Source: a virus (Duplodnaviria > Caudoviricetes). From it: DNA of 64,000 bases. Below, in pieces: positions 2 through 63,121 of this stretch (positions are counted from its first letter, which is position 1; every line of letters starts with the position of its first letter). Both the position numbers and the translations under genes were made by a program. The notes below the pieces were generated by a model. That model did no database searches, was not told where the DNA came from, and saw only the letters and a list, made by a program, of their open reading frames with translations. The DNA lies in the IMG/VR virus record IMGVR_UViG_3300009709_000004, positions 1,297 through 65,296 of that record; one strand, given 5' to 3'.

Positions 2-454
2 ACCTCGGTTATTGCTGGGGCGGATAGGCATACCGCCGCAGATGCGTTCCTGAAGTCGCAGAACGTTCCTATCTCGTTTGGTGGTTCGAAAGCCTTTTAT
101 CGAGTAGATAAGGACGAGATTGTTATGCCTGCGTTCTGTCAGTTCCACGATGCGGCAGGGTTTTATTCGACATGGTCGCATGAACTGGCGCACGCCACCG
201 GGCATGCTAGCCGGCTGGATCGGCAGTTCGGCCGGCGGTTCGGCGATGACGCATACGCCGTCGAGGAACTGGTAGCCGAGATTTCAGCGGCTTTCACCTG
301 CGCGCATTTGGGCATCAATAATGCGCCTCTACAGAACAACATCGAGTACTTGGCAGATTGGCTGCGCATCCTGAAATCAGACAAGCGCGCTATTTTCACT
401 GCGGCATCCAAAGCGCAGGCCGCGACGGATTGGCTGGTCGCACACGCCGCGTAA
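2..454 (+). CDS. ardC: ArdC-family antirestriction protein, C-terminal zincin metallopeptidase domain (5'-truncated by window edge)
   Basis: Frame is open from base 2 (…KAFYRVDKDEIVMPAF…). Contains HELAHATGH zincin motif and YAVEELVAEISAAF, both typical of the ArdC C-terminal domain. Confidence 0.85.
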   Translation, partial: TSVIAGADRHTAADAFLKSQNVPISFGGSKAFYRVDKDEIVMPAFCQFHDAAGFYSTWSHELAHATGHASRLDRQFGRRFGDDAYAVEELVAEISAAFTCAHLGINNAPLQNNIEYLADWLRILKSDKRAIFTAASKAQAATDWLVAHAA

Positions 455-509: not shown

Positions 510-618
510 GTTTGCCGGGCCGTAGAAGCCCGTGGAAGCCGGTATCGGGGCTGTCCGGTAGGGGAGTAGCGAGGCGGTCTACGCGGGCTTCCTTGGGCTT
601 CTATGGTTGGGGAGCGGC
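510..618. repeat. Dispersed long-hairpin element, copy A
   Basis: Arms tagaagcccgtggaagcc (523-540) and ggcttccttgggcttcta (586-603). First 34 bp identical to the copy at 6984. Confidence 0.8.
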
Positions 619-2420
619 TAGTCGGTTTCCTCCTGCCAGTGCGTGCACCAGCCGAGCGGATCGATGACGCCCATGACGTGGCGGCACCGGTTTTCGCCGA
701 GGTAGTTTTGACAGTCGTCGCATATCTCGTCGCCATGCGTAGACTTGTTTTGATATTTGACTGACTTCTTTGTCAGCGTGGGTTGGTCTAGAGCCTCATC
801 TTTGGCCCTGACCGACAGCTCAGATTTTTTCGCAGCGGTATTAGATATAGCGTTGGCCGCGTCCTGCCAGCTAATCGGCGGCTGGGCTCCCGGCACCTCC
901 ATGACCGGCATATCGTCCGGGTCTAGGCCAGCGTACGGACTATCCGGGGAGTTGGCGACGCGCTGGCGGATTTCCTCGGCGGATATGGCGCCTTGCTCGG
1001 CTAGCACCGCATCCGTGTCCGCCTCCGTCTTGCGGACTGCGGCGCGGCTGGCTTCATCGAGCTGCCACAGCGGTACCCACTCGTAGGTAATTTCGGGATC
1101 GATGAAACCATATTCAGATAACTGGATAAGGTCCAAGGCATCTTTTACATGAATGTCGCAGACGTTCGCTTGTCTAGCTTGAATACTATCATAATGTACT
1201 CGTATCTCCCCTTCAGAACTCGCATTCAATCCGCTTGGGGTAATGCCGAATGCCTTGACAAGTGGAAGACCTGTTATGGAACTCATATGCTCTTGTGCTT
1301 GGGCTTGCAAGGCGTCTAGGGTACCTAGCGGGGCGGATACGTTGCCGAAACCTTCCGTATTCTTATCGATCATCAAGACGCCGCGATTATCTCTTGTCGC
1401 GGCGAATAGCTGAATACGATTGAATAGTTCGTCTGCATCGGCGGCGCCGCCTTGCAGGATGCCGAACATATTGGTTTCTAATACGTAGACCGTGAAGCTG
1501 ACTAGCAGGTCGGTAACCGCCTGTCTCGTGCGCAACCAGTTGTCTACATACGGTTTTAGCATCTGAGTTAGTGCGATGCCGCCGAAATTATAGGCGGGTT
1601 TTAGGATGTCAGGTACCGGCCGGGAGTTGAATATCATCAGCCGGGTACTGCTGACTTCCTTTCCGTTCACAAACCATGTCTGTGGTTTGTAGTATGTTGG
1701 GTTGAGCGGGTCGCTGCTATTATAGTTATTCGGCGCGATCCATGTCGGGTCTATCGGGCGGAATGCTAGCAACTGGCCTTGGCCAATTTTTTCCTTTTTG
1801 CGAGGAAGCGGGGTTTTCAGCTCGATGACGTCATCTGTGGCTCCGGTATCGATGTATAACATACCAATACCGAAATAACCATCATGCTCAAGCGCTTGTT
1901 TGATCGCTTCCTTAAGATGGTATTTGTTTTTTTGTTTATCTGTAAGGTCTTTTACCTTTTCAGACTTTTCGTTCCCGACTGCGGATATTTTAATCCACTT
2001 TCGGGTCATTTCCTCGGCTATGATTTCAACCGGGCGTCTGTACTCGGCGCGCTGCGAAAGCTCGGCTAGATACGGGTAGCCCATAAAACCTATGCCTTCG
2101 GCAAAGGTTCCATGATATGCCGTATTCAGCCAATTATAGGTTGCAGGTGCGTTCTGATTTGTGTTCTGCCACGTATTTCCGTCCAGCGCGAGCGTGGTTT
2201 TGCCGTTCGGCAGTACTCCGGGCGCATACTGTGGAAGCTTGTACGTGTTTTGGCGCTGAAGGCGCGGATCAATCGGTTTTGCGTTGGCGTGAACTAGAGC
2301 ATCCAGAGGAATTTTAATCTGAGGTTTTTTGGTTGTGAAAGCCGGGTCTATGCGCTGCGCGGGCGGAGTTCGGTTTGCAGTTCCAAAAAGCGATTTGATG
2401 CGGTTGGTTATCTGATTCAT
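618..2420 (-). CDS. Phage portal protein (DUF1073 type) with C-terminal HiPIP-like [4Fe-4S] domain
   Basis: Directly downstream of TerL. Portal motifs GYPYLAELSQRAEYRR, EEMTRKWI, AQEHMSSITGLPLVKAFGITPSGLNASSEGE. C-terminus KYQ…CDDCQNY…CRHVMGVIDPLGWCTHW. Confidence 0.9.
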   Translation of the reverse strand: MNQITNRIKSLFGTANRTPPAQRIDPAFTTKKPQIKIPLDALVHANAKPIDPRLQRQNTYKLPQYAPGVLPNGKTTLALDGNTWQNTNQNAPATYNWLNTAYHGTFAEGIGFMGYPYLAELSQRAEYRRPVEIIAEEMTRKWIKISAVGNEKSEKVKDLTDKQKNKYHLKEAIKQALEHDGYFGIGMLYIDTGATDDVIELKTPLPRKKEKIGQGQLLAFRPIDPTWIAPNNYNSSDPLNPTYYKPQTWFVNGKEVSSTRLMIFNSRPVPDILKPAYNFGGIALTQMLKPYVDNWLRTRQAVTDLLVSFTVYVLETNMFGILQGGAADADELFNRIQLFAATRDNRGVLMIDKNTEGFGNVSAPLGTLDALQAQAQEHMSSITGLPLVKAFGITPSGLNASSEGEIRVHYDSIQARQANVCDIHVKDALDLIQLSEYGFIDPEITYEWVPLWQLDEASRAAVRKTEADTDAVLAEQGAISAEEIRQRVANSPDSPYAGLDPDDMPVMEVPGAQPPISWQDAANAISNTAAKKSELSVRAKDEALDQPTLTKKSVKYQNKSTHGDEICDDCQNYLGENRCRHVMGVIDPLGWCTHWQEETD

Positions 2421-3910
2421 TAGCGGAATTTTTGCAATACGTCAGATGCTATTCGCATTGGTGGCGCAGTAGTTTGAGTGAGATTGGTGAATGCGCCCGC
2501 TAATGCATCCACTTGGTCATCGTGTGTGGAGGCCGGAAAAGATGCGAGCTCCTCAAGGAAATCTCGGTTCCAAGCGGATTGCACGATGCCGACGTTACCG
2601 ATATTGATTTGTGCCGCAACCGGTGTTGCCCGGTTGGCCTTATTCGTATCCTCACGCTCTACGCTAACAGAATACCCAGCAAGCTTTTGTACGTAGAAAA
2701 AAGCTGTGGATTTTCCGCCAGCTCCAGGGTCTTGCGGAATGCGAATGCGGCAGAACTTGCCGTCCTGTTTGGCGGTATTAATAACCGCCGAGAGAACCTC
2801 GGCAGGATCGCCACGAAACCGAACGATATTTAGCACAACAAAACGACCATCTTGAAGTCTGCCGAGCTTCAAACCGACCGTATAATCAGGGTCGCGCCCG
2901 TTCATATTTTCGGTTGCGGCCAAATCCCAAGCTCGCACCATGCTGACACAATGGGGTGCTACGTCATACGTATGAATCGCCACCGTTTTGAATAGCGAAC
3001 CTTCTATAGGTCTAGGGCGCTGCTGATAAAGCGCGGACCATTCACGTTCTCCTACCTCGCGGCGCTTATCATTTAAGATATGCAACGGATATTCTTCAGG
3101 CCAGAGAGCTTGACCGGGCAACCTGCCGAGCGGGTCCGGGATAAATTGTCCATCCTTATCGTATTGATCTTCTGCAATAGCTGGCATGCTGATCACACGC
3201 CACTGTTTACCGCCGGAAGCCATATCTTGCAGGAGCCTGCCAGCGAGGTCATCCTCATGCCATCGGGTCTGGATCAATACGATTTTCGCACCGCTGACAA
3301 GGCGAGTTATTACTTCCGCACGCCACCATGCATGCGTAGCATTGCGGATAACCTCGCTATCAGCATCTTTGCGCCCTTTGATCGGGTCATCAACGATAAA
3401 CAGATGAGCACGACGACCGGTAATTGATCCGTCCACGCCTGCAGCTCGGTAAAGACATCCGTTCGATGTACGCCAGAGCTTGCGGCTATCGTTAAGTAAG
3501 CGAAAACCAAGCAAATCTTTATGCTTTTGAATACGCTTAATGATATTCCAGGATATATCGTTCTCTGCGTATTCCGATCCGTGACTGGCGCCTATAACTG
3601 CACGAGTTTTATAGTGACCAAACTTGTTTGGTTTGGATTGCGCCATAAACCAGATTGGAAACAAGATTGCGGCGTATAAGGTTTTCGCGTGTCCTGGCGG
3701 CATGAAGATCATCAAGCGGTCTATCTCGCCTGCGGCCAGGCTTTCCAGTTCCCGAATCATAACATCGTGGTGCGCAGCCGGGAGGTACTCCTCGTCAGCC
3801 AGTGCAGACACACACCACGCGCGAAAGCTCTTTTTGACTAGCCGACGATGTTGCTCGGCTAGGACATGTAGGTATTCTTCTAGTAGCTCGCGGTTTTCGG
3901 TATCTAACAT
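2420..3910 (-). CDS. terL: Terminase large subunit
   Basis: Walker A MPPGHAKT, Walker B FIVDDP, IQTRWHEDDLAG coupling motif, nuclease motifs RAWDLAA and HDDQVDA. Confidence 0.95.
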   Translation of the reverse strand: MLDTENRELLEEYLHVLAEQHRRLVKKSFRAWCVSALADEEYLPAAHHDVMIRELESLAAGEIDRLMIFMPPGHAKTLYAAILFPIWFMAQSKPNKFGHYKTRAVIGASHGSEYAENDISWNIIKRIQKHKDLLGFRLLNDSRKLWRTSNGCLYRAAGVDGSITGRRAHLFIVDDPIKGRKDADSEVIRNATHAWWRAEVITRLVSGAKIVLIQTRWHEDDLAGRLLQDMASGGKQWRVISMPAIAEDQYDKDGQFIPDPLGRLPGQALWPEEYPLHILNDKRREVGEREWSALYQQRPRPIEGSLFKTVAIHTYDVAPHCVSMVRAWDLAATENMNGRDPDYTVGLKLGRLQDGRFVVLNIVRFRGDPAEVLSAVINTAKQDGKFCRIRIPQDPGAGGKSTAFFYVQKLAGYSVSVEREDTNKANRATPVAAQINIGNVGIVQSAWNRDFLEELASFPASTHDDQVDALAGAFTNLTQTTAPPMRIASDVLQKFR

Positions 3911-3938
3911 AGATGCAACATTATATGCCGTATCGCGG

Positions 3939-4508
3939 CTAGCCGCGCCGTTTCTCGGCTACGCCGAGGGTACGCTCTAATTCCTCACGGCGGCGGATCA
4001 GCGCATCATCGTCTAGTAACGCAAAATTGTCAGATTCCACATTGACGTTGCGTTGTACTGGCGCACCTTCGATGCGAGACAAAAGAGCTTCGCTTGCCCT
4101 AATACGGTTTGAACCATATTCGTCCGTGGTCGCAATAGTCAGCAGATTGTCTTTTAATATCTGGACAATCTCACGGTCGCTCATTCCTGCGTGCTGTGGA
4201 CGGTTGCGCATAGGGACATACCCAGCGCGCGGTCCGCCCCAACCGGCGCCATTAGCCGGCCGATGTTCGGGATGGTCCGGATGGAGCGGCGAAGCCGGCA
4301 ATAGCTTTCCTTTGGCGCGCAACCTCTTGTCATGAGCTTTTCGTTTCTCCGTCAAGGCGATGCCGGATACGCCTTCCTCGATTTTCTTAATGGGAGGCTG
4401 GGTACCCTGATCAGTTTTCGTGATATGCGGCTTGACGCCGAAACGAAAGCGCTGCGGCGATGCATCCCGGTGCGATCCAAGATGCACGATATTATCGTCT
4501 TTTTTCAT
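3939..4508 (-). CDS. Probable terminase small subunit
   Basis: Immediately upstream of TerL, 189 aa. C-terminal LDDDALIRRREELER coiled segment typical of TerS. Mainly positional evidence. Confidence 0.5.
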   Translation of the reverse strand: MKKDDNIVHLGSHRDASPQRFRFGVKPHITKTDQGTQPPIKKIEEGVSGIALTEKRKAHDKRLRAKGKLLPASPLHPDHPEHRPANGAGWGGPRAGYVPMRNRPQHAGMSDREIVQILKDNLLTIATTDEYGSNRIRASEALLSRIEGAPVQRNVNVESDNFALLDDDALIRRREELERTLGVAEKRRG

Positions 4509-5053
4509 GCCAAAGCTACTATGCTTCTAGACACAACGGTTTCTACTTCGCGTCCAAAAATATGCATCATTATTCTAATTCTATCAGCTTTAGAATATGT
4601 GCATATAACATGTTGACCCTCATACGCGCCCGAGGTTATTATTAGCCTAGTGCCCGGGTCAATCTCAACATAACCTTTTGGTGTTTCACCAATGGATTGA
4701 ACGCGAGCTAAATGACGGAGCTGCTCAACGGATTGTTCTGAGATAGTTGCCGGGATACCAGGTTCACGCTCTAAAACGCGATATATCCCGCGCGTGCTAT
4801 AGATCGGATGCCAAGCATCCGACATCGCAAATTCTATTAAGATATAGCCGGGCAAAAGCGGACGTTGTTCAGTCCACGTTCTGTCGGGGTTCTTAAATCG
4901 TTTATGTTCTACGGGAAACGTAAGATGTAGTGCTCGGAACCCTTGATTTGTCAGATTAAATAGTGCCCGCGTTTCTTCTTTATCATGCGTCTGAGCGACA
5001 TGCCATGATCTTTTATTTCGTGCCAGGAAGCTGTCTAATCTGAATCTTTTCAC
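4505..5053 (-). CDS. NusG/RfaH-family transcription antiterminator
   Basis: NGN domain (WHVAQT…E…A…NL..QGF; PLLPGYILIEF; STRGIYRVL) plus KOW domain (PGTRLIITSGAYEG; IMMHIFGRE). Confidence 0.88.
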   Translation of the reverse strand: MKRFRLDSFLARNKRSWHVAQTHDKEETRALFNLTNQGFRALHLTFPVEHKRFKNPDRTWTEQRPLLPGYILIEFAMSDAWHPIYSTRGIYRVLEREPGIPATISEQSVEQLRHLARVQSIGETPKGYVEIDPGTRLIITSGAYEGQHVICTYSKADRIRIMMHIFGREVETVVSRSIVALA

Positions 5054-5067
5054 AACTGCATCAGACG

Positions 5068-5099
5068 GCTACCGCAGGCGGCGTACCAAGCACGCCGCC
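5068..5099 (-). promoter_or_regulatory. ops-like element (GCGGTAGC) preceded by a GC hairpin in the leader of the RfaH-like gene
   Basis: Minus strand reads GGCGGCGT-gcttggt-ACGCCGCC-T-GCGGTAGC-cgtctg. The element ends 14 nt before the GTG at 5053. E. coli ops core is GGCGGTAG. Confidence 0.6.
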
Positions 5100-5163
5100 G
5101 AGTAAGGCGATGCCGCCACTGATAGCTTCGCCATCGATCGATCGTCAAGCGCCGCGAATATCA

Positions 5164-5382
5164 TCAGTCGCGAGGTACTCGCGGCACGTACACGACCGTG
5201 GGCTCAAAGCCTAGCCGCTGCGCTAGACGCTTTGGTACCCGCTTCCTGCCCCGAACGATCTTATACATGTCACTTATGTCGATACCGTAACGACGGGCGC
5301 TCATTGGAATAGTTTCCGAGGGATGATCTGATATGTCGTCTAAGAGAGCTTCTAAAACGTCTATGTGCGAAAAAGTTTCCAT
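5164..5382 (-). CDS. Small Cro-like HTH protein
   Basis: 72 aa. SARRYGIDISDMYKIVRGRKRVPKRLAQRLG fits an HTH pattern. Confidence 0.6.
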   Translation of the reverse strand: METFSHIDVLEALLDDISDHPSETIPMSARRYGIDISDMYKIVRGRKRVPKRLAQRLGFEPTVVYVPRVPRD

Positions 5383-5439
5383 AATAAGATGCTCTATTGT
5401 AGTCTATACGTTAGACAAGTCTATACACTAAGACAAATT

Positions 5440-5553
5440 CTAGTACGGCTAGGAGAACCTAGTACGGCTAGGAGAACCTAGTACGGCTAGGAGAACCTAG
5501 TACGGCTAGGAGAACCTAGTACGGCTAGGAGAACCTAGTACGGCTAGGAGAAC
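5440..5553. repeat. Six exact tandem copies of 19-bp ctagtacggctaggagaac (iteron-like)
   Basis: Read directly from the sequence. No spacers. Followed by an AT-rich tract. Confidence 0.95.
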
Positions 5554-5665
5554 TGTGTGATTTTTTGTTTCTTTTGGCTGTTTTGTTAGTTTGTTGGCCG
5601 AGCGAGCTTGCGAGCGATGCCGACACACTAACAAAACACTTGTTTAGTATCACAAAATAGACCAT

Positions 5666-5714
5666 ATGTACCAAAAGCATGCTTTTATGACGTAAAAGCA
5701 TGCTTTTGGTACAT
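5666..5714. repeat. Perfect 22-bp inverted repeat with 5-nt loop; each arm contains the palindrome aaaagcatgctttt
   Basis: atgtaccaaaagcatgctttta-tgacg-taaaagcatgcttttggtacat. Confidence 0.95.
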
Positions 5715-5952
5715 TTTTAGCTGAATTTTTCTAATCTATATTAAAACACACTAACATTATACAAACGTGTTAGTGTTTCTACCTCGGAACAATAAGTGGT
5801 TTTGTAAATTTTTTACTTTCCTGCGCCCGCGTACGCGCCCGCGTAGTATACATGACGCGCGCGTACGCGCGGAGTTTCTTTCTCTGACTCTATGCCGTAG
5901 AGGCCGAGCTTTGGCTGGCCCTACGGCGAGGGGGCGGAAGATTAATCACTAC

Positions 5953-6009
5953 CATTGACCTTTGAAAATGCCTTCCGCCTTCGGCGTCCGGCATTTTCAA
6001 AGGTCAATG
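5953..6009. repeat. Perfect 20-bp inverted repeat with 17-nt loop
   Basis: cattgacctttgaaaatgcc … ggcattttcaaaggtcaatg. Confidence 0.9.
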
Positions 6010-6262
6010 TTAATAATTAATCTCCCACACCTCCCCGCAGAAAAGCTGTGTTTTTCAGAGGTACAAAAACCGTAGAGTCCGCGTACGCGCGTGCGAGTGC
6101 AGGCGCCCGCGTACGTGCCCGCACGCGCTCGCACGTACGTGCCCGCGCGAGAAACTTGTATAACTACCGAAATGAAACTACGCTAACCATAACAGATTAC
6201 CGGGAAACTAAAATCCTTAATCGATCGTTGAAACCGCGCTAGGTAAAGTGCTAAGGGGCGGT

Positions 6263-12370: not shown

Positions 12371-14896
12371 ATGGGCTTTTTCACTCCGGACGAGGAACTA
12401 GACCGGCAACATAAGCTCGCAAAAACAATAAAAAAGATTAACAAAGTAAGAGATAAGAAATCTGTCACCGGCCCGAGTCTCGGCTGTGATGCTTGCGCGC
12501 TTAAGCGCACATGGCCGACGTTGAAAAGCCCTATGATGAAGATGACCGGTAACATTGAAACCGGTGATATTCTAATTTTGGGAGAAGCGCCTGGCGAAAA
12601 TGAAGATTTACAAAATCAGCAATTCGTCGGCGAGAGCGGCAAGCTCCTGCGTGATATCTTGCCTTTTAAGCATACTAAAAGGCTCGCATACCAGAACATA
12701 GTTCGTTGTCATCCGGCCGGTAACGATACGCCAAATGCCGAGGTTGTGCGCGCATGCTCGATCCACCTGGAGCGCGACATAACCGCCCTGAAGCCGCGCG
12801 CGATCCTCGGAGTCGGCGGTACGCCGCTATCGGGCGTGTTTCCGGGGCAGTCGATTACGGATTTGCACGGCTTGCGTATGCCGGTACAGATCGGCAGTCA
12901 TGTTGCGTGGTATTGGCCAATCCTGCATCCGGCTTTTGTTCTGCGCATGGGCGGCAGGAAAAGCAATGCTTATCCTGTGTTCCGCGCGGATATAACTAGG
13001 TTTTTTAGCGAAGTCGATTCTTGGGATAAGCCTAAGATGGTTAGCTTGTCTATAGACAGTATAATAAAACCAAAATCATTAGCAGAAGGCATATCCTTAC
13101 TAGAAAAAATGTGCTTGCCTCTGTCTATAGACGTTGAAACCACGTCGCTTACGTCGAAAGAGATTGACGCAAAACTGTTAACCGCGGCTATTAGCGATGG
13201 AAACACAACCATAGCATTCTGCGTGGATCACCCCAGATTTCCAAATGATTGGGGCTTAAAGCTGCTTCATAAGGCGATTACTAAACCGTGGCTGTCTCAT
13301 AATGCGGCTATGGAGCTTAAATTCTTTTTACGTTACTATCCTGATACCGAGCCCGCGCCGTTTGATGATACGCAAGCTCTTGCGAGATTAAAGTATCAGC
13401 GTGTAGGGGCGGGCAGCCTTGATATCGTATCTAAGCTCAATCTGGGCATAAACGTTAAAAGCTTAAGCGATCTAGATACAAAAAATTTGATGCTTTATCC
13501 GATCGAAGGCGTTTTGAACTATAATGGTCTAGATGCGTTAGCGACGCGGCTTTGCTACGATCGTATGAAAAATACCGTAGACAAAACCAATTACCAAAGA
13601 CTTATTCGATCTATTCGCGCAGTTACCCACATGGAAATGATGGGAATTTGCACAGATCAAACTGAGGCAAAGAGGCAGCAAGAATATTGGCAAGCGGTAG
13701 AACGGGATGAAATCGCTAAGGCCAAAAAGATTTATGAAGTGCGTGAGTTTGAACTGCGCAATATGCGCCCCTTTAACATTGCGTCGAACAGCGATGTCGG
13801 CGAGGCATTGGCCGTCCATGGGAGGCTTCCGCTTCCGCCGAAAGCGGCGCGCGGTGGCAAGCGCGCGTGGTCTACCAGTGAGGAAGATTTGTTGAAGTGC
13901 GCACCAGATAACCCGCTTGTTCGAGCTGTGATAGCCTATCGAGAAGCTGTCAAGATGAATAGCACATATCTATCAAGTGTGCTTGAGGCGCCGGCTCGGT
14001 ATGGCACAAATTATATTCATCCGAAATATACTATTCTTACAGTCCGCACCGGCCGCATGTCTAGCGTGGACCCTAACGCGCAAAACTGGCCTAAGCGTGA
14101 CGCAGCGCAGATAAACCTGCGTAAAACGATTATCGCTAAGCCTGAACACATCTTTGTCGCGTTTGACTATGGTCAAATTGAGGCCAGGATCATAGCGTGC
14201 GCGACCAAAGATAAAAACTTAATACGAAAGACGATTGCGGGATATGATGTTCACGCATATTGGCGCGACAGGGCGTTGTCATTGCATCCTGACTACATCG
14301 AACGGTTTAAGCAGCTAAGCGGCAGTTTAGATCACAAAAAGATATTAAAAAGTGCTCGCGACACGATAAAGTCTGATTTTGTGTTCGCGGCTTTTTTCGG
14401 TTCTAGTGATACTTCTATAAGCGAACGCTCTGGATTGCCGCTAACTATTTCCGGTCAGATGCTTGATGAGTTATGGCAGGAGTTTCCTGGCGTTCGGGCT
14501 TGGATTAAACAACAGCGCCGACAATATTACGAAACTGGATGCATCTATACGTTAACCGGTCGTGTGCGTTACGGGATCGCGTCTGGTAATGAAATGATAA
14601 ATACTCCTATTCAGGGTAGTGCCGCAGATATTATGCTTGACGCCTGCTCAGAACTAAGTGAGATGAGCATAGCGGAAAACGATCCGTATCTGCATCCCCG
14701 CGTCGCCATTCATGATGATCTAATGTTTGAGCTGCCGGATGACGGCCGGCTGTTGATGTATATAGAACGTATCTGGCCAGTTTTGACCAAAGTTCGCTAT
14801 CCGTGGCTCGTGGTGCCGCTGATTATCGAGGCGAGAATAGGCACTACATGGCGCGATCTAGAAGACTTTGCGGTGTTTGAAGGAAAATATGCGTGA
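12371..14896 (+). CDS. polA: Family A DNA polymerase with N-terminal family-4 uracil-DNA glycosylase domain and 3'-5' exonuclease
   Basis: UDG: CDAC, LGEAPGENED, FVGESG, NIVRCHP, ILHPAF. Exonuclease: IDVETT. Polymerase: TGRMSSVDPNAQN, FDYGQIEAR, RDTIKSDFVFAAFFG, NTPIQGSAAD, IHDDL. Confidence 0.95.
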   Translation: MGFFTPDEELDRQHKLAKTIKKINKVRDKKSVTGPSLGCDACALKRTWPTLKSPMMKMTGNIETGDILILGEAPGENEDLQNQQFVGESGKLLRDILPFKHTKRLAYQNIVRCHPAGNDTPNAEVVRACSIHLERDITALKPRAILGVGGTPLSGVFPGQSITDLHGLRMPVQIGSHVAWYWPILHPAFVLRMGGRKSNAYPVFRADITRFFSEVDSWDKPKMVSLSIDSIIKPKSLAEGISLLEKMCLPLSIDVETTSLTSKEIDAKLLTAAISDGNTTIAFCVDHPRFPNDWGLKLLHKAITKPWLSHNAAMELKFFLRYYPDTEPAPFDDTQALARLKYQRVGAGSLDIVSKLNLGINVKSLSDLDTKNLMLYPIEGVLNYNGLDALATRLCYDRMKNTVDKTNYQRLIRSIRAVTHMEMMGICTDQTEAKRQQEYWQAVERDEIAKAKKIYEVREFELRNMRPFNIASNSDVGEALAVHGRLPLPPKAARGGKRAWSTSEEDLLKCAPDNPLVRAVIAYREAVKMNSTYLSSVLEAPARYGTNYIHPKYTILTVRTGRMSSVDPNAQNWPKRDAAQINLRKTIIAKPEHIFVAFDYGQIEARIIACATKDKNLIRKTIAGYDVHAYWRDRALSLHPDYIERFKQLSGSLDHKKILKSARDTIKSDFVFAAFFGSSDTSISERSGLPLTISGQMLDELWQEFPGVRAWIKQQRRQYYETGCIYTLTGRVRYGIASGNEMINTPIQGSAADIMLDACSELSEMSIAENDPYLHPRVAIHDDLMFELPDDGRLLMYIERIWPVLTKVRYPWLVVPLIIEARIGTTWRDLEDFAVFEGKYA

Positions 14897-25942: not shown

Positions 25943-26243
25943 TTGTATGTTACCCGCGTAACATTTTATGGGAAACGTGTCGTGAGCGTTTTAGTTAGTA
26001 AAAGCGTAAAAATTGACGGGCGCCGAACAAGCCTCCGTATGAGCCCGGAATTTTGGAACGCCATAGATGAGATCGCAAAAGAACTCAATCAAGGTCGGGA
26101 CGCATGTATAGACATGATATGCCGCCAAGCGCGGCCCGGAAAAAAACAACCGATCTAACGCGATCCGCGTGTATGTCTTGCTATGGTTTCAAAACAAATA
26201 CCACGAAACGCGAGATCAAATGGGGGCACGCTATGCTGGGTAA
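25943..26243 (+). pseudogene. Ribbon-helix-helix (RHH_4-type) regulator split by a frameshift at an A7 run
   Basis: The N-terminal half SKSVKIDGRRTSLRMSPEFWNAIDEIA stops at 26158. The expected C-terminal NAIRVYVLLWF continues in the +1 frame to TAA at 26241-26243. Confidence 0.7.
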
Positions 26244-26937
26244 GAACGCGATCGCGCCAGTACTTGCTGATAATTGGAAACTGAACGTTCACAGCGTGTG
26301 GTACACCATCCGCAATACCGGTCCCTGGATGGGCTACCCTGTCATCGTCATTCGGCTGGCCGGCTGCAATCTGCGGTGCTTTTGGTGTGATGTGGATTTT
26401 GAGCGCGGCGCCAAAGAGATCGAGGTCGATGCTCTCGTTAATACGATCGTCGGCCTTTCGCGCACTCATCGGGTGCGCAAAGTGCTGATTACCGGCGGCG
26501 AGCCGATGATACAAGCCGGAATTGTCTCTCTTATCCATCAGCTTGCGCGGCAATATATTAGGTTTGAGATCGAGACGAACGGGCTGGAATGGCCGGCAAA
26601 GATGGAAACCGTCCTGCCGTTTGTTACGATCAACGTATCCCCCAAGACACAGCATATTATTGAGCAAGTTACCAGGTTTGCTGGCGCATGGAGCTATGTC
26701 ATCGCTGCCGGCGAGACGCATGTGACGGACGGCTTGCCGATGATGAGTACACAAGAACGCGATGAGCCAACGAAGATCGCACGGCCTTTTCATCGGTACT
26801 CTAACACATTTGTGCAACCCCGGAATGATGGCGATCCGATCAAGAACAAGGCCAACACAGACGCCGCGATCAAGATCGCGATGAAATTTGGATATCGTCT
26901 GAGCCTTCAAACCAATAAAATGGTCGGTCTGGACTGA
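26233..26937 (+). CDS. queE: QueE-like radical SAM protein (7-carboxy-7-deazaguanine synthase family)
   Basis: IRLAGCNLRCFWCD (CxxxCxxC), VLITGGEP, IETNG, NVSPK, YRLSLQTNK. Confidence 0.85.
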   Translation: MLGKNAIAPVLADNWKLNVHSVWYTIRNTGPWMGYPVIVIRLAGCNLRCFWCDVDFERGAKEIEVDALVNTIVGLSRTHRVRKVLITGGEPMIQAGIVSLIHQLARQYIRFEIETNGLEWPAKMETVLPFVTINVSPKTQHIIEQVTRFAGAWSYVIAAGETHVTDGLPMMSTQERDEPTKIARPFHRYSNTFVQPRNDGDPIKNKANTDAAIKIAMKFGYRLSLQTNKMVGLD

Positions 26938-58254: not shown

Positions 58255-59772
58255 TTATGCGACCGATTTCAGCCGATAAAAGCCGGGAAACCGTTCTTCG
58301 ATCGATTTTGTGGCCGCCGAGTCATTCGCTAGGGGCGGCGACGAGCGGCGATCATCGCCGGGCTTGGGCTGTGCCAGCAAGATATGCTTGTACGCATCCG
58401 GATGTACGCCGTTCACGCTAATTCCCAGCGTATTGAGCGCAAAACGGAATACATCCTCGGCGGTATCCTGCGCAATCGCTAGATCGCCGATATATGGCCG
58501 CACGATGCGCTCCGCCTCGCGCACGGCCGACTGGCGGGCGCGGTCCTGCGCTAGGGCCACGCCTATCGCGGCATCCATGGCCTTTTTGTCGCGCGCTTTT
58601 CTGTCGCGCCCCTCGCGCATTTTGACCGCGCGTTCCTCGGGCGTCTCATCTTCCTCGGCTTCGTCGCCGGCATCCATCATATCATCTTCGTAATCGTCAT
58701 CTTCTGCGCGGCGATCTTTCGCGGCCTTCATATCGCGCGCTTTCTTATCCTTCGCCGCTTTGTCTTTCGCGGCCTTATCCTTCGCCGCCTTCATGTCACG
58801 CGCCTTTTTATCCTTGGCTTCTTTCTTCTTTTTTTCTTCCTCATCCATATCCTCATCGATGCCGGAATTGGTATCTTCCGGATCGGGATCGCCGGTCAGA
58901 CCCTCGGGGATATCCGCATCTTCGCCTTCGCGATCGAGGCTATCCAGGAAGCCATGCACATCCTCCATGCTGGCATCCTGAGCCAATTTGCCGGCCGCCG
59001 CCGCCATCAGCCGGCGGGCAATGACCGGCTTCGCCTCCGGCCAATTACTGGCCGTAGTGCCCAGCAGGACCGATTTGAGATCGATCTGAGCGTCAGCTGC
59101 AAGCTTAGGCTTGAGGTAGGCACTCAAGGCGCCACGCACATAAATCGCCTTGCCAGAGATAACAGGCTTTGCATTCGGCATTGGGAACTCCTCGACAATA
59201 GTACGGATACGTTTTGAAAGACGCAATGGCATCGCGTCGCCTATAACCACGTCGGGGCCCGCGCGGCCTTCTGCTACGATAGCGACATGGTTGCCGACGA
59301 TGTCGCGCATCACACCATCGTAGTGCTGGCCCAGGAAACTGCCGGGCGACATATCCGGATAATATCCGTAACCGCATGACAGCTGCAATTTGCGGCCGCT
59401 TTCGATGTCGCGGATATCATTGCCGTCCCAGATAACTAAACTGTTGCGCAGATATTCGCCATCAAAGTTAGCATCCGTTCCCGTCGATCCAGCAACAACA
59501 TTCTTATGCGGGTCATCGGCGGATACGCCGATATGCAAGCTCATGATCTGGATGTTGTTGAAGGAATGCGCGGCTTTTCGTAGTTCATCCGACGAACGGT
59601 AAAGATAGTATATCTTATCCGGACGAAGCCCTAATTCCTCCCAAAGAGGTATTTCACTGCCGATATAAGGACAAATGTTGGCCTTTGATATATTAGCCAT
59701 GCGGACATGCAGCCTCTTATATGCATCGTAATAGCGCATAGACGCATCTAGGGCGAGGTTGGCTGATGGCAT
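58255..59772 (-). CDS. DUF2213 prohead protease/scaffold protein
   Basis: ISKANICPY.G.EI, LSCGY.Y.PDM.PG, YDGVMRDIVGNHVAIV..GRAG.DV.IGD, then a charged repeat scaffold region. Confidence 0.9.
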   Translation of the reverse strand: MPSANLALDASMRYYDAYKRLHVRMANISKANICPYIGSEIPLWEELGLRPDKIYYLYRSSDELRKAAHSFNNIQIMSLHIGVSADDPHKNVVAGSTGTDANFDGEYLRNSLVIWDGNDIRDIESGRKLQLSCGYGYYPDMSPGSFLGQHYDGVMRDIVGNHVAIVAEGRAGPDVVIGDAMPLRLSKRIRTIVEEFPMPNAKPVISGKAIYVRGALSAYLKPKLAADAQIDLKSVLLGTTASNWPEAKPVIARRLMAAAAGKLAQDASMEDVHGFLDSLDREGEDADIPEGLTGDPDPEDTNSGIDEDMDEEEKKKKEAKDKKARDMKAAKDKAAKDKAAKDKKARDMKAAKDRRAEDDDYEDDMMDAGDEAEEDETPEERAVKMREGRDRKARDKKAMDAAIGVALAQDRARQSAVREAERIVRPYIGDLAIAQDTAEDVFRFALNTLGISVNGVHPDAYKHILLAQPKPGDDRRSSPPLANDSAATKSIEERFPGFYRLKSVA

Positions 59773-59784
59773 GCTAGAAAACCT

Positions 59785-61281
59785 TTAGGCCGCGAACGTC
59801 AGCGGCGCGCGCCCGCTAGGTACATACGTAGGAAAGTTCATATTGCTCGCGATATACATCTGCGCGGAAGCCGTGCTATCAACGTAGACCTGATATTCCG
59901 GAGATATAGCCGCCGCAAACACAGAATCGCTAAACCACATTTGAGAGTTTATCAGCGCGGCTGCGTTTACGTCATAAGAGCTAACATTATCCGTAGACGG
60001 ACCTATGAAGCAGCCGACATTCCACGTTTTGCAATAGTTATCATCGATTATCGGCCCGCTAGTGGAATTAATAGCGAGGCATAGAACACGAGTACCCCAA
60101 CAATAGTCATGTCCGGTAAAGCAATTATTGGAAGCCGCAGCCGTGTTGAACCCTGCATAGATCGCGACGCACTCAAACTCATGAAAATTTGGCGATGTGT
60201 TGGGTGTAACACCATCCGCTTCATAGGAATGATAGTTGAATGTGTCAGCCTGCCCGGACGCGCCTAGGCATTGGTAGACGTAGACCGTGCAATAACTTTG
60301 AATAGACAAACAGTTGTTATTATTAGACGAACCCTGAAACGAACAATTATTAAAAACGAAGGTCTGCCCGGTAACGGTCGAGACGTTGTACGCGATAAAG
60401 CACGCGCTACCGCCGACAAAATCCAATCCCTCAACATATGTGAACTGATTATTCTGAGAGCCGGCACGCCCATTGTTAACAGAGACGCTGCCGATAACAT
60501 TCGCGTCTGCGGCACGGCCAGTCGGCGTGCTAACATACGTGTTAGTGCCATCATAATAATAACTGCCAGGATTGGCCGCTACCGCCGCGACAGATGTCTG
60601 TAGCGTATAGACCTGATACATCGGCGGGCAGTGGGTGACCGTGTGCACTGTCGCGCCATCGCCGAGAATATACTGGCCATTGACCGTGCATTTCTGCCCA
60701 GCCGGGATGACGAGCGATGGTTGCGACGCCGATGCAATATCGATGACGCTATAGAAGTGCGTCGCGACCTGATAGACGTTGCTATAGGTCCCGTTCTGCG
60801 TCCATGAAGTGGGCGTGGACGCGCCGGTCTGCGTACAGATAAACCGGTAGCCGGTGCGATTAGTTATTACAACGTTCGCGGTTGGCTGGTAATTGCTCCA
60901 TCCCGCACTGCCCAGCGCCACATAGTTCGCCGACAGAACGAGCTGAATGCCGATTGTGACACCCGCGCTGCCTTGGGCAAGCGCATGCCCCAACGTTTTG
61001 AATGCAGCTGACGATGACAATCCGGAATTACTATCCGATCCGTTGACGGGATCAAGATAGTACTGCGTATTGATTGTCGGGATAAGTGATGTAGGATTGA
61101 AATTGTGAACGATCTGCCCGGACGGGAGCCGCCCGACCGTCCACGACGTGGTATAGCCGAAACCGCTTGGTGGCGCGACGGCGGTGTAGGGGCGCGCGGC
61201 GCCATGACCGCGCGCCCAAGCAGGCGATGCGGCGATGGCAAGGGCACTGACCCCGGCTAGGAGCTGTCTACGCCGGATCAT
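59785..61281 (-). CDS. Predicted Tat-exported parallel beta-helix (pectin-lyase-like) protein
   Basis: MIRRRQLLAGVSALAIAASPAWA signal, YYLDPVNGSDSNSGLSSSAAFKTL motif, Asn/Cys-ladder repeats. ATGA-coupled start. Confidence 0.65.
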   Translation of the reverse strand: MIRRRQLLAGVSALAIAASPAWARGHGAARPYTAVAPPSGFGYTTSWTVGRLPSGQIVHNFNPTSLIPTINTQYYLDPVNGSDSNSGLSSSAAFKTLGHALAQGSAGVTIGIQLVLSANYVALGSAGWSNYQPTANVVITNRTGYRFICTQTGASTPTSWTQNGTYSNVYQVATHFYSVIDIASASQPSLVIPAGQKCTVNGQYILGDGATVHTVTHCPPMYQVYTLQTSVAAVAANPGSYYYDGTNTYVSTPTGRAADANVIGSVSVNNGRAGSQNNQFTYVEGLDFVGGSACFIAYNVSTVTGQTFVFNNCSFQGSSNNNNCLSIQSYCTVYVYQCLGASGQADTFNYHSYEADGVTPNTSPNFHEFECVAIYAGFNTAAASNNCFTGHDYCWGTRVLCLAINSTSGPIIDDNYCKTWNVGCFIGPSTDNVSSYDVNAAALINSQMWFSDSVFAAAISPEYQVYVDSTASAQMYIASNMNFPTYVPSGRAPLTFAA

Positions 61282-62651
61282 TGGCCGTCGCACCCATATG
61301 TAGCCGTACCAGACAAAGATGCTCCGTTGAACGTTATGCCGGTGAGATTGTAAGTGACATAAAATCCGCTTAATGCAGAGTTAGGCTCTCCGTGACAATG
61401 ATTGTAGATCGTGAATGCGTTGGTAAACGTCAGCAAGCACGATGTCGGCGAGCCCGTGCCAAACGTTACGCTGCCAGACCAGTCCGTCGCGTTTGCGTCT
61501 GCCGCCGGAGTGCCGCCCCCGCATGCGCTGACGACTGGCTTGACATTGGAACCACTGACAAGATGCTGAACTGAAACATGATCATTTTGATCTATCTCAA
61601 ACGCATGCGCGGAATTGATATCCAGCGCTAGACAGTTCGATGCCGCGCACCCGCTCATGCCCGTGCCGCTCGCCGTGGTCGTGAGCCCGCTCAAATTGTA
61701 TCGGTTGAGCAAGATTGTGGTGACGATGGCCGGAAACGATGCCGAGGTCGTGGCGTTGGCCACGATCGAGGAAGCCGGAAAGGTCGAGAGATACGTACCG
61801 ACCTGCTCGCCTGCTAGGGTGCTAGATGAGGTGACGTAGAAGCGCCAGATGCCGGATTGACCGGAAATCAGATGCGCAGTGGTAAGCTGCGTAATACCGG
61901 AGCCCCACGTAATCGACATATCGTAAGCGGTAGTGTTTTTGGCCGTAAACCAGAACATCTGGCCGACCTGAGGGGTAGTCAGCGCGGCGATAATGTTGGC
62001 CGCGGTGTCGGTGGTATCCGTGAACGCAGCTGTCGGGCCGCTGCGCTGGATGTCGCCACCAGCGATAGCCGACGCCGTCAGCGTAGTATTAGAGGTCGCT
62101 GTGACGCTCGTGCTGGATGCGGTCTGGAAGATGCTCGGCGTGGTGCTGGAATTGATCGTGGATATGCCGCCACCACCCAAACCAGTGACCGACGTGACGC
62201 CGCCTCCGCCGCCCGGGACGATAGCCGTGCACGCATCGCCGAAATAATTGGTGCCGTCCGATACAATGTTGCACTGAGTATTTGGCGCGATCGAGAGTGA
62301 TAATGCGCCTCGGATTGTGCTGCCACTGGGCGTGAGCGTGATGGTACCGGAGGGACTGTCATTGACGATGGTCACGGAGAAGCCGGCGCCGTAGCCGGTT
62401 GTGGTGGGCGCGACGATCGTCCACGCAGATGCTGATGTCCCGGTGTATCGCAGATCAGTGGCGTTGTCGCCGGGCTGGATCGGGTAAGATGTTCCGGTGA
62501 CGGGCGTGCCGCCGTTGCCCAGCAAGGTCGTGGTGGAGATAACTCCCAAGGGGCTTTGCGCCAAGCCGGCGCCGATTGAATAAGGGTTTGCGGCGAACGC
62601 ATGAAGCGCTAGCAGCGAAAGAGATGCAGCGCAGACTATGAGTTTTTTCAT
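61278..62651 (-). CDS. Predicted Sec-exported Thr/Ser/Gly-rich beta protein
   Basis: MKKLIVCAASLSLLALHAFA|A signal peptide, fibre/adhesin-like composition. Confidence 0.6.
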   Translation of the reverse strand: MKKLIVCAASLSLLALHAFAANPYSIGAGLAQSPLGVISTTTLLGNGGTPVTGTSYPIQPGDNATDLRYTGTSASAWTIVAPTTTGYGAGFSVTIVNDSPSGTITLTPSGSTIRGALSLSIAPNTQCNIVSDGTNYFGDACTAIVPGGGGGVTSVTGLGGGGISTINSSTTPSIFQTASSTSVTATSNTTLTASAIAGGDIQRSGPTAAFTDTTDTAANIIAALTTPQVGQMFWFTAKNTTAYDMSITWGSGITQLTTAHLISGQSGIWRFYVTSSSTLAGEQVGTYLSTFPASSIVANATTSASFPAIVTTILLNRYNLSGLTTTASGTGMSGCAASNCLALDINSAHAFEIDQNDHVSVQHLVSGSNVKPVVSACGGGTPAADANATDWSGSVTFGTGSPTSCLLTFTNAFTIYNHCHGEPNSALSGFYVTYNLTGITFNGASLSGTATYGCDGQ

Positions 62652-62653
62652 GA

Positions 62654-63121
62654 TCAAAAAACGCTCCATACGGAGGTAGTGGTATTGGGGTAGAAGACGA
62701 AACCTCCGCCATTAACATCGATTACGGCGGAGCTAAGCCCCGTTGAAAGCGTCCAACCGGCAGCCGGGACGATTGTCTGCGGGTTGGCGCCTTCATTGCC
62801 GTTGGCGCCGCCGACGATGTAAGGCTGACCATTGCCGTTGCCTGCGTTGATGGCGGCGGTTGTCGGCAGCGTAAATGTCGTGATGCCGGAACCTCCCTCG
62901 ATCTGCGTCAATCGGGGAGTACCGGATATCGATGCAGCTGTGCCCGCCGGTAGCGTGACAGGTGCCGCCAGGCCGCCTCCGCCGCCCCCTCCGGACGCTA
63001 GAGCTGCGGCGAGCGTCTGCTGACTGCCGCCTGACGGGGTGACTAGCAGCGTGCCGATCGCCTGGACGCGCAGGTCCGGGGCCGTGACTAGCAATGCATC
63101 ACCGTTAAGGGCGCCGCTCAT
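62654..63121 (-). CDS. Hypothetical Gly/Thr-rich protein
   Basis: 155-aa ORF adjacent to the next gene. Confidence 0.55.
   Translation of the reverse strand: MSGALNGDALLVTAPDLRVQAIGTLLVTPSGGSQQTLAAALASGGGGGGGLAAPVTLPAGTAASISGTPRLTQIEGGSGITTFTLPTTAAINAGNGNGQPYIVGGANGNEGANPQTIVPAAGWTLSTGLSSAVIDVNGGGFVFYPNTTTSVWSVF

Follow-up and report, generated by a model that had tools for sequence, protein, structure and literature searches.

A HiPIP-type iron-sulfur domain at the end of the portal protein of an uncultured phage

We have analysed a phage gene in which the portal protein runs, at its C-terminus, into a domain of the high-potential iron-sulfur protein (HiPIP) type. The gene lies in a 64,000-nucleotide stretch of phage DNA (Duplodnaviria; Caudoviricetes), hereafter the window, which covers positions 1,297 to 65,296 of IMG/VR record IMGVR_UViG_3300009709_000004. 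In textbooks, portals are the gates for DNA, whereas HiPIPs appear as carriers of electrons in the periplasm of phototrophs and iron oxidisers. A first-pass annotation of the window, made from the letters alone, had stated that no HiPIP on a phage portal was known, and a search of the literature found no paper linking a HiPIP with a phage virion or portal.

The portal-HiPIP gene and the identity of its tail

The IMG/VR genome is that of a complete, uncultured phage of 65,296 bp with a GC content of 52%, an exact 122-bp direct terminal repeat and a CheckV completeness of 100%. Table 1 lists the parts of the portal-HiPIP gene together with the two other head genes referred to below. The assignment as a portal is based on matches to the Pfam family PF06381 (Phage_portal_3; 4.4e-82, 276 bits, profile positions 2-356 of 357) and to the PHROGs family phrog_146 (6.9e-104).

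Table 1. Features of the portal-HiPIP gene and of two other head genes, numbered from the first letter of the window
Feature	Position	Strand	Basis or remark
Whole portal-HiPIP gene	618..2420	-	600 codons and a TAG stop at 618-620; open frame
Portal core, residues 116-471, Phage_portal_3 / DUF1073	1008..2075	-	Pfam match
Equivalent of the crown and C-terminal helical barrel of E217/Pa193 gp19, residues 472-532	825..1007	-	Alignment to 8fvh/9b41
Linker, residues 533-546 (…KKSELSVRAKDEALDQ)	783..824	-	No homologue, no start codon
HiPIP domain, residues 547-598	627..782	-	Domain profile 74 bits, 3h31 match, AlphaFold2 model, PDB fold matches
Cys567, predicted cluster ligand 1	720..722	-	Invariant or nearly invariant alignment column
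Cys570, predicted cluster ligand 2	711..713	-	Invariant alignment column
Cys579, predicted cluster ligand 3	684..686	-	Invariant alignment column
Cys592, predicted cluster ligand 4, within the G-W-C motif	645..647	-	Invariant alignment column
Large terminase	2420..3910	-	Terminase_6C and Terminase_6N; directly upstream, one-base overlap with the portal start
DUF2213-type prohead protease/scaffold of this phage	58255..59772	-	phrog_2229, 4.7e-117; no HiPIP here

The last 53 residues of the portal open reading frame (ORF) read exactly as the first-pass annotation had quoted them, and the frame is open over its 600 codons. As had been claimed, this tail is in frame with the portal, no stop lies between the two, and no export signal precedes it. 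From residue 509 to the end of the domain there is no in-frame ATG, GTG or TTG other than the ATG of Met583, which lies inside the HiPIP domain and 3' of three of the four cysteines. Across the HiPIP region the portal frame is uninterrupted, and both other frames contain stops. Homology to portals, counting relatives and solved structures alike, reaches residue ~524-534 (530-534 for the closest portal relatives), leaving a linker of about 14 residues before the HiPIP starts at residue 547; no portal relative aligns to residues 533-546. A genome-wide search returned no second HiPIP domain. The HiPIP-type domain is truly fused to the portal, in one frame and without a start codon of its own. An artefact, by which a small and originally separate HiPIP gene 3' of the portal was joined to it through an indel in assembly or sequencing or a lost stop, is extremely unlikely: neither a ribosome-binding site nor an in-frame start codon stands ahead of the domain, the frame runs into it unbroken with only those 14 or so residues between portal homology and domain, and in-frame portal-HiPIP fusions occur on independent contigs (L088, L057/P0110, P0113 and P0112).

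The cysteines of the tail are spaced as C567-x2-C570-x8-C579-x12-C592, within the HiPIP range C-x2-C-x(8-16)-C-x(12-14)-C, and are accompanied by Tyr556, Tyr573, Trp591 and Trp595. The PROSITE signature of HiPIPs, C-x(6,9)-[LIVM]-x3-G-[YW]-C-x2-[FYW], is matched by C579-RHVMGV-I586-DPL-G590-W591-C592-TH-W595, and Tyr556 occupies a near-invariant column. When the 60-residue tail was compared with 1.84 billion proteins using phmmer, 106 matches were obtained at E<=1e-3 (best 7.8e-12), nearly all of them proteins of 50-240 aa that share the pattern K-x-[ST]-K-x3-x-Y...C-x2-C-x2-F...C-x2-V-x-G-x-I-x-P-x-G-W-C. Such a likeness goes well past what chance would give. A hidden Markov model (HMM) built from these matches aligned to residues 547-598 of the tail with 74 bits. 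Conservation was judged in three alignments, of 41, 20 and 149 sequences; throughout, the four cysteines are invariant or near-invariant, and the Tyr, Gly, Pro and G-W positions are near-invariant.

The first-pass annotation had proposed a search of the tail against the Pfam HIPIP family (PF01355). On its own, this search speaks against the assignment, in that the scores (15.9 bits for the tail alone, 12.7 for the whole protein and 15.3 in the genome search) stay below the cut-off of 22. Homology is nevertheless established, because intermediates bridge the gap: Pfam HIPIP matches 28 of the 41 tail relatives (E<=0.01), and the family profile matches PioC in the Protein Data Bank (PDB) at 6.1e-15 and 3h31 at 7.9e-10, as well as 1isu and 1hlq. 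Even the tail alone matches the Rhodothermus marinus HiPIP 3h31 (1.5e-4, cysteines aligned) and, more weakly, PioC. The profile searches and the predicted fold thus bear out the earlier designation as a HiPIP-type domain, and the likeness it had noted to short HiPIPs such as Iro is echoed by P0005, a protein named 'iron oxidase' that is 46% identical to the tail and among its best matches with a twin-arginine (Tat) leader. By sequence comparison the tail is homologous to the short HiPIPs of the PioC/Iro type and retains the four cluster cysteines and the shielding aromatics. As a separate observation, the best matches of the tail include metagenomic proteins of 154-239 aa with two HiPIPs in tandem (P0002, P0003, P0004 and P0096).

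Structure prediction gave the HiPIP fold. The AlphaFold2 (AF2) model made with the 149-sequence alignment has a mean predicted local distance difference test (pLDDT) score of 94.7, although that alignment includes true HiPIPs, so that the model is not independent of homology, and the domain was modelled without its cluster. A model from the 20-sequence alignment (pLDDT 50) was discarded. All 18 Foldseek matches of the accepted model in the PDB are HiPIPs, among them 3h31 (TM score 0.81 at a root-mean-square deviation, rmsd, of 2.2 A) and PioC (TM scores 0.77/0.79, rmsd 1.9 A). The HiPIP fold of the tail is therefore a high-confidence prediction. The domain would bind a [4Fe-4S] cluster, acquired in the cytoplasm of the host while the virion is being assembled. 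With PioC of Rhodopseudomonas palustris TIE-1 (6xyv), Iro, 3h31, 1isu and 1hlq it shares a fold of about 50 residues (TM 0.77-0.81, rmsd 1.9-2.2 A), the four cysteines, the upstream Tyr, the G-W-C motif and the flanking aromatics. HiPIPs of the PioC/Iro type are free, Tat-exported periplasmic carriers, whereas the window domain is internal, leaderless and placed at the end of a 600-aa virion protein.

Relatives and lineage of the domain

The first-pass annotation, which knew of no other HiPIP on a phage portal, had suggested searching DUF1073 portals for further HiPIP or cargo fusions. Both were found, HiPIPs on L057 and L088 and other cargo on sister portals, and the fusion is not a single case. 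Running the domain HMM over the 80 closest IMG/VR portal loci revealed two further carriers. One is L057/P0110 (1020 aa), in which the portal is followed by the HiPIP (652-706) and then by a type IB topoisomerase; the other is L060 (582 aa), a DUF2213 prohead protease with an N-terminal HiPIP. A search of a 5.8-billion-protein set, limited to longer proteins, added the HiPIP-DUF2213 proteases P0108 and P0111. P0113 (1641 aa) comprises a portal, the HiPIP, an InPase and further regions that are kinase-like and ADP-ribosyltransferase-like by eye, and P0112 (896 aa) combines a portal of a different family (phrog_12/2662) with the HiPIP and a C-terminal domain. L088 repeats the design of the window, with a phrog_146 portal, linker, HiPIP and stop, the portal being ~25% and the HiPIP 47% identical. 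In all, four further HiPIP-bearing portals from two portal families were found (L088, L057/P0110, P0113 and P0112), along with the HiPIP-DUF2213 fusions P0108, P0109, P0111, L060 and L083. A word-indexed search for portal-length proteins with this particular tail returned the window's own protein only, and the tail alone had no match in IMG/VR.

A wider view was obtained by scanning IMG/VR for the DNA motif encoding C-x2-V-x-G-x-I-x-P-x-G-W-C. At least 120 contigs carry it, and all 120 listed loci are true domain matches (30-80 bits). Most of the listed loci (88/120) lie in ORFs of fewer than 160 codons, mostly leaderless and ~55-100 codons long; for another 30, the surrounding ORF has 243-903 codons. 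These large carriers include portals and prohead proteases of the DUF2213, S78, XkdF and phrog_80 types, and also a 'tail protein' family (9 cases), 2H/LigT, cytidylyltransferase and a methyltransferase. In BFVD, the UniProt viral entries with the HiPIP fold come from uncultured phages and range over zeta-toxin, ParB/Srx, SppA/ClpP-type protease, XkdF and prohead-protease proteins, among others. By these matches the HiPIP is a recurrent phage module, free-standing in most cases and otherwise attached to portals, to prohead proteases or within effector chains.

Two motifs were seen next to the domain in the longer fusions. C-terminal of the HiPIP, between further cargo domains, L057 (~715-735, ORF 3129-6191), L083 (after 254, ORF 2529-5153 on the minus strand) and P0113 (near 869 and 1136) carry a bead-linker motif, (D/E)-x2-H-P-R-x3-5-G-x-F...G-G(-G), whose consensus also starts most of the sister-portal extensions. 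This HPR...G-x-F linker may mark bead boundaries or processing sites. N-terminal of the HiPIP, the DUF2213 fusions P0108, P0109, P0111 and L083 share a conserved segment, TDPPVSE-x-QRRAMWAAREG...GIP-x-SVG.

The phylogeny of the domain was inferred with FastTree from 203 distinct sequences; with ~50 residues, midpoint rooting and biased sampling the tree is weak. Within it, HiPIPs with a Tat leader pair only with Tat-type or unclassified proteins. A Tat-type protein is the nearest neighbour of none of the 32 fused copies; 31 of them pair instead with a bare leaderless, a viral stand-alone or another fused copy. Tat-type members are absent from a clade of 80 tips (support 0.87). Fused copies adjoin stand-alone viral copies at many separate places, which suggests that the HiPIP was fused to phage proteins repeatedly. 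The window HiPIP sits on a long branch nearest to leaderless copies. According to this tree the domain belongs to a leaderless, phage-type HiPIP lineage and not to the Tat-exported HiPIPs of hosts. A twin-arginine leader and a place in the periplasm, which are typical of HiPIPs without defining them, are lacking here, the domain being internal to a virion protein that is assembled in the cytoplasm.

Free-standing phage copies are flanked mostly by unknown PHROGs, S-adenosylmethionine decarboxylase, ribonucleotide reductase, nucleotidase and endonuclease, and so for the most part do not lie among head genes. The only carrier among 50,697 GenBank phage records is the Synechococcus phage S-SRM01 (QPX48026.1 / A0A879R316; 67 aa, L223, MW015081.1 47292-47495; tblastn 7e-7, fold TM 0.87), whose protein is labelled 'hypothetical protein' there and automatically given a HiPIP profile by UniProt. 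With the window tail as query, tblastn against GenBank phages returned S-SRM01 only (E=0.4), and with the L088 tail it returned no match. The S-SRM01 protein has the same HiPIP-type domain and is the only copy found in a cultured phage; it differs in being a free-standing gene amid small hypothetical genes, not fused to a virion protein. No paper discussing QPX48026.1 was found in the literature.

Prophage relatives of the portal (35-50% identity) come mostly from Alphaproteobacteria (Bradyrhizobium, Mesorhizobium, Rhizobium, Caulobacteraceae and Acetobacteraceae), which hints at an alphaproteobacterial host group for the phage. In none of the 19 prophage relatives in named genomes was a HiPIP found near the portal. 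These data bear on the idea of a recent capture from the host, by which a Tat HiPIP stripped of its leader, an auxiliary gene of iron oxidation or photosynthetic electron transfer, would have become attached to the portal by chance. Tat-leader proteins of 40-46% identity, one of them the 'iron oxidase', are indeed among the best single-sequence matches. However, on the tree the tail has leaderless nearest neighbours and the Tat-type HiPIPs keep to themselves, the 19 prophage relatives lack the domain, and a periplasmic carrier that had no leader and was fixed to a capsid vertex would be cut off from its partners. The idea was rejected on the tree and the prophage portals, and we hold it to be highly improbable.

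A further alternative is that the domain is a structural knob stabilised by metal, Fe-S or possibly zinc, which has no redox role and acts as a stopper or spacer on proteins of the head interior. The domain is tiny and, in the AF2 model, consists mostly of loops around the metal site; its usual placement is at a terminus or between larger domains, and no redox partner is evident in the genome. Yet the aromatics that would shield a cluster (Tyr556, Trp591 and the aromatic after C-x2-C) are conserved across the 149 sequences, and the persistence of free-standing copies as genes in their own right implies that the domain can act autonomously. We know of no zinc-binding HiPIP fold. A purely structural role is, in our view, quite unlikely.

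The portal C-terminus in the virion

Two solved portals are related to the window protein, gp19 of E217 (8fvh; 1.4e-35) and the 765-aa gp19 of 9b41 (7.1e-35), each entry with 12 chains, and the alignments to them end at query residues 524 and 532, respectively. The model of E217/Pa193 gp19 spans residues ~94/97-528, the last part of which forms a barrel reaching into the head; for residues 529-765 there is no density (PMC10329688, PMC11456595). Because these homologous portals end in a head-projecting barrel, the tail of the window protein is placed inside the capsid: residues 533-600 would leave the barrel tip into the capsid interior, twelve times per virion. By this analogy there are probably twelve iron-sulfur clusters inside the virus head. 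The first-pass annotation had put the tail at the DNA gate; by homology to E217/Pa193 it would lie instead in the capsid interior beyond the barrel and not in the channel. The solved gp19 is the same in kind, a homologous portal with a C-terminal barrel and then an extension without density inside the head. It is different in that its extension is ~237 aa long and, by PHROG alignment, covers an InPase-like region and not a HiPIP. In this alignment the InPase region of P0113 is matched by positions 627-749 of phrog_4660; gp19 residues 529-765 thus appear to include an InPase-like domain, and E217/Pa193 would be a solved portal with an invisible cargo in the same slot.

Other portals use this slot as well. 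Extensions of 94-1311 aa past the shared core are present in 17 of the 80 closest portals, L057 among them, and Pfam identifies ADP-ribosyltransferase domains in five of the 17, topoisomerase IB in two and a zeta toxin in one. Fusions of portals or MuF to effectors (PBECR, 2H, InPase) belong to the 'polyvalent proteins', for which packaging into the virion and injection have been described (Iyer et al. 2017, PMC5512222); that paper makes no mention of iron-sulfur, Fe-S, cysteine or HiPIP. The window portal resembles these proteins in carrying an extra domain, as part of one polypeptide, on the capsid-interior end of the portal; moreover, P0113 joins the HiPIP with an InPase, and sister portals hold effector domains in the same slot. 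It differs in having one small, non-enzymatic add-on and not a chain of 2 to 15 effector enzymes. Several effectors on one chain, as in polyvalent proteins, are found in its relatives P0110 and P0113 and not in the window portal itself.

The portal stop is approached by a gene of the opposite strand, for an ArdC-like protein of 286 aa (window 2-454, plus strand; genome 890-1750) with a C-terminal MPTase-PolyVal zincin domain (6.2e-47). This gene converges on the portal stop and breaks the usual order from portal to head genes, and the MPTase-PolyVal family is a hallmark of polyvalent anti-restriction proteins. At the other end of the window, between the genome end and the DUF2213 protease, lie two large proteins with export signals (59785-62669, minus strand), one Sec-like and the other with a twin-arginine leader and 'hydrolase/tail fibre' PHROGs, which are unusual in a head cluster.

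A possible role for the domain where it sits is that of a tethered device. Twelve Fe-S clusters at the barrel tip could sense redox state or oxidants and condition ejection, or could serve as a sacrificial electron source that protects the DNA end. The window tail is terminal, with nothing beyond it and no motif of the kind that separates beads; in the multi-cargo fusions, too, the HiPIP is the bead adjacent to the portal. In addition, the E217 barrel folds only with DNA present, so this region responds to DNA (PMC10329688). Against a tethered role, the same domain occurs on the N-termini of prohead proteases, in effector chains and mostly free among metabolic genes. It is also net acidic even before the cluster is counted (4 Lys and 2 Arg against 5 Asp and 4 Glu, by hand count), so that contact with DNA is not favoured. 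We regard a tethered sensor or electron source as unlikely.

Interpretation and significance

The reading we prefer, and to which we attach moderate confidence, is that the tail comes from a phage-specific HiPIP lineage and is carried in the virion as an Fe-S cargo bead. It is read as virion cargo because portal C-termini, the prohead protease/scaffold and the effector chains all end in the prohead interior. In this hypothesis the dodecameric portal would continue past its head-projecting barrel, by way of a short flexible linker, into a leaderless HiPIP of ~52 residues that receives its Fe-S cluster within the host cytoplasm at assembly. Twelve copies per virion would then sit on the inner side of the portal vertex, as cargo beads and not as part of the DNA channel. 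Our best guess is that they would provide a pre-assembled Fe-S redox module, ready from the first moment of infection, and that the portal-borne HiPIP would do whatever the stand-alone phage HiPIPs do once their genes are expressed from the genome. Any cleavage of the tail would have to come from the DUF2213 prohead protease. A folded 6-kDa domain would be ~24 A across, as estimated from its mass, and would fit the lumen of the tail tube, ~37 A in Pa193 (PMC11456595); delivery with the cluster in place, should the protease free the domain, is thus physically conceivable, though speculative.

Several results weigh against the cargo-bead proposal, beside the sub-threshold Pfam score, the dependence of the AF2 model on homology and the weakness of the tree given above. 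The survey of carriers was biased, resting on one DNA motif with at least 120 loci and on proteins picked by their likeness to the tail. The free-standing copies lie mostly in a metabolic or early neighbourhood, by which the function of the domain is not intrinsically a virion one. The window fusion is a single add-on that lacks the HPR...G-x-F linker found between beads. No cleavage site could be identified: A-x-D occurs 6 times against 3.7 expected and is not enriched, and the linkers of twelve HiPIP fusions have no common motif, which leaves the first-pass idea of cleavage at RAKD/ALD without support. Delivery into the host is for this reason conjectural. A bolder version, in which phages have leaderless HiPIPs of their own that are loaded into the capsid with cluster in place and are either injected folded with the genome, being small enough for the tail channel, or kept at the portal vertex as a redox-active part that would sense or buffer oxidation of the DNA inside, we consider unlikely.

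Two other Fe-S proteins had been predicted from this genome, and both are present at the family level: a UDG domain in an 841-aa ORF (window 12371-14896, plus strand; 69.9 bits) and a radical-SAM, QueE-like protein (window 26104-26937, plus strand; 48.1 bits). The phage would thus depend on host Fe-S assembly for other proteins too.

Should the cluster be incorporated, the virions of many uncultured phages would carry redox-active iron-sulfur centres. This raises the question of what a high-potential cluster does inside a capsid or a freshly infected cell, whether a metalloprotein could be delivered through a tail, and why a leaderless phage HiPIP lineage has spread so widely, both as free genes and as fusions. 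That S-SRM01 is the only cultured phage found with the domain would explain why the module was missed, and its being in culture offers a possible experimental handle on a HiPIP-type gene. If the proposal is true, a non-enzymatic, cofactor-bearing module would be added to the catalogue of phage head cargo, and if that cargo is injected, it would be the first known Fe-S protein delivered with a genome.

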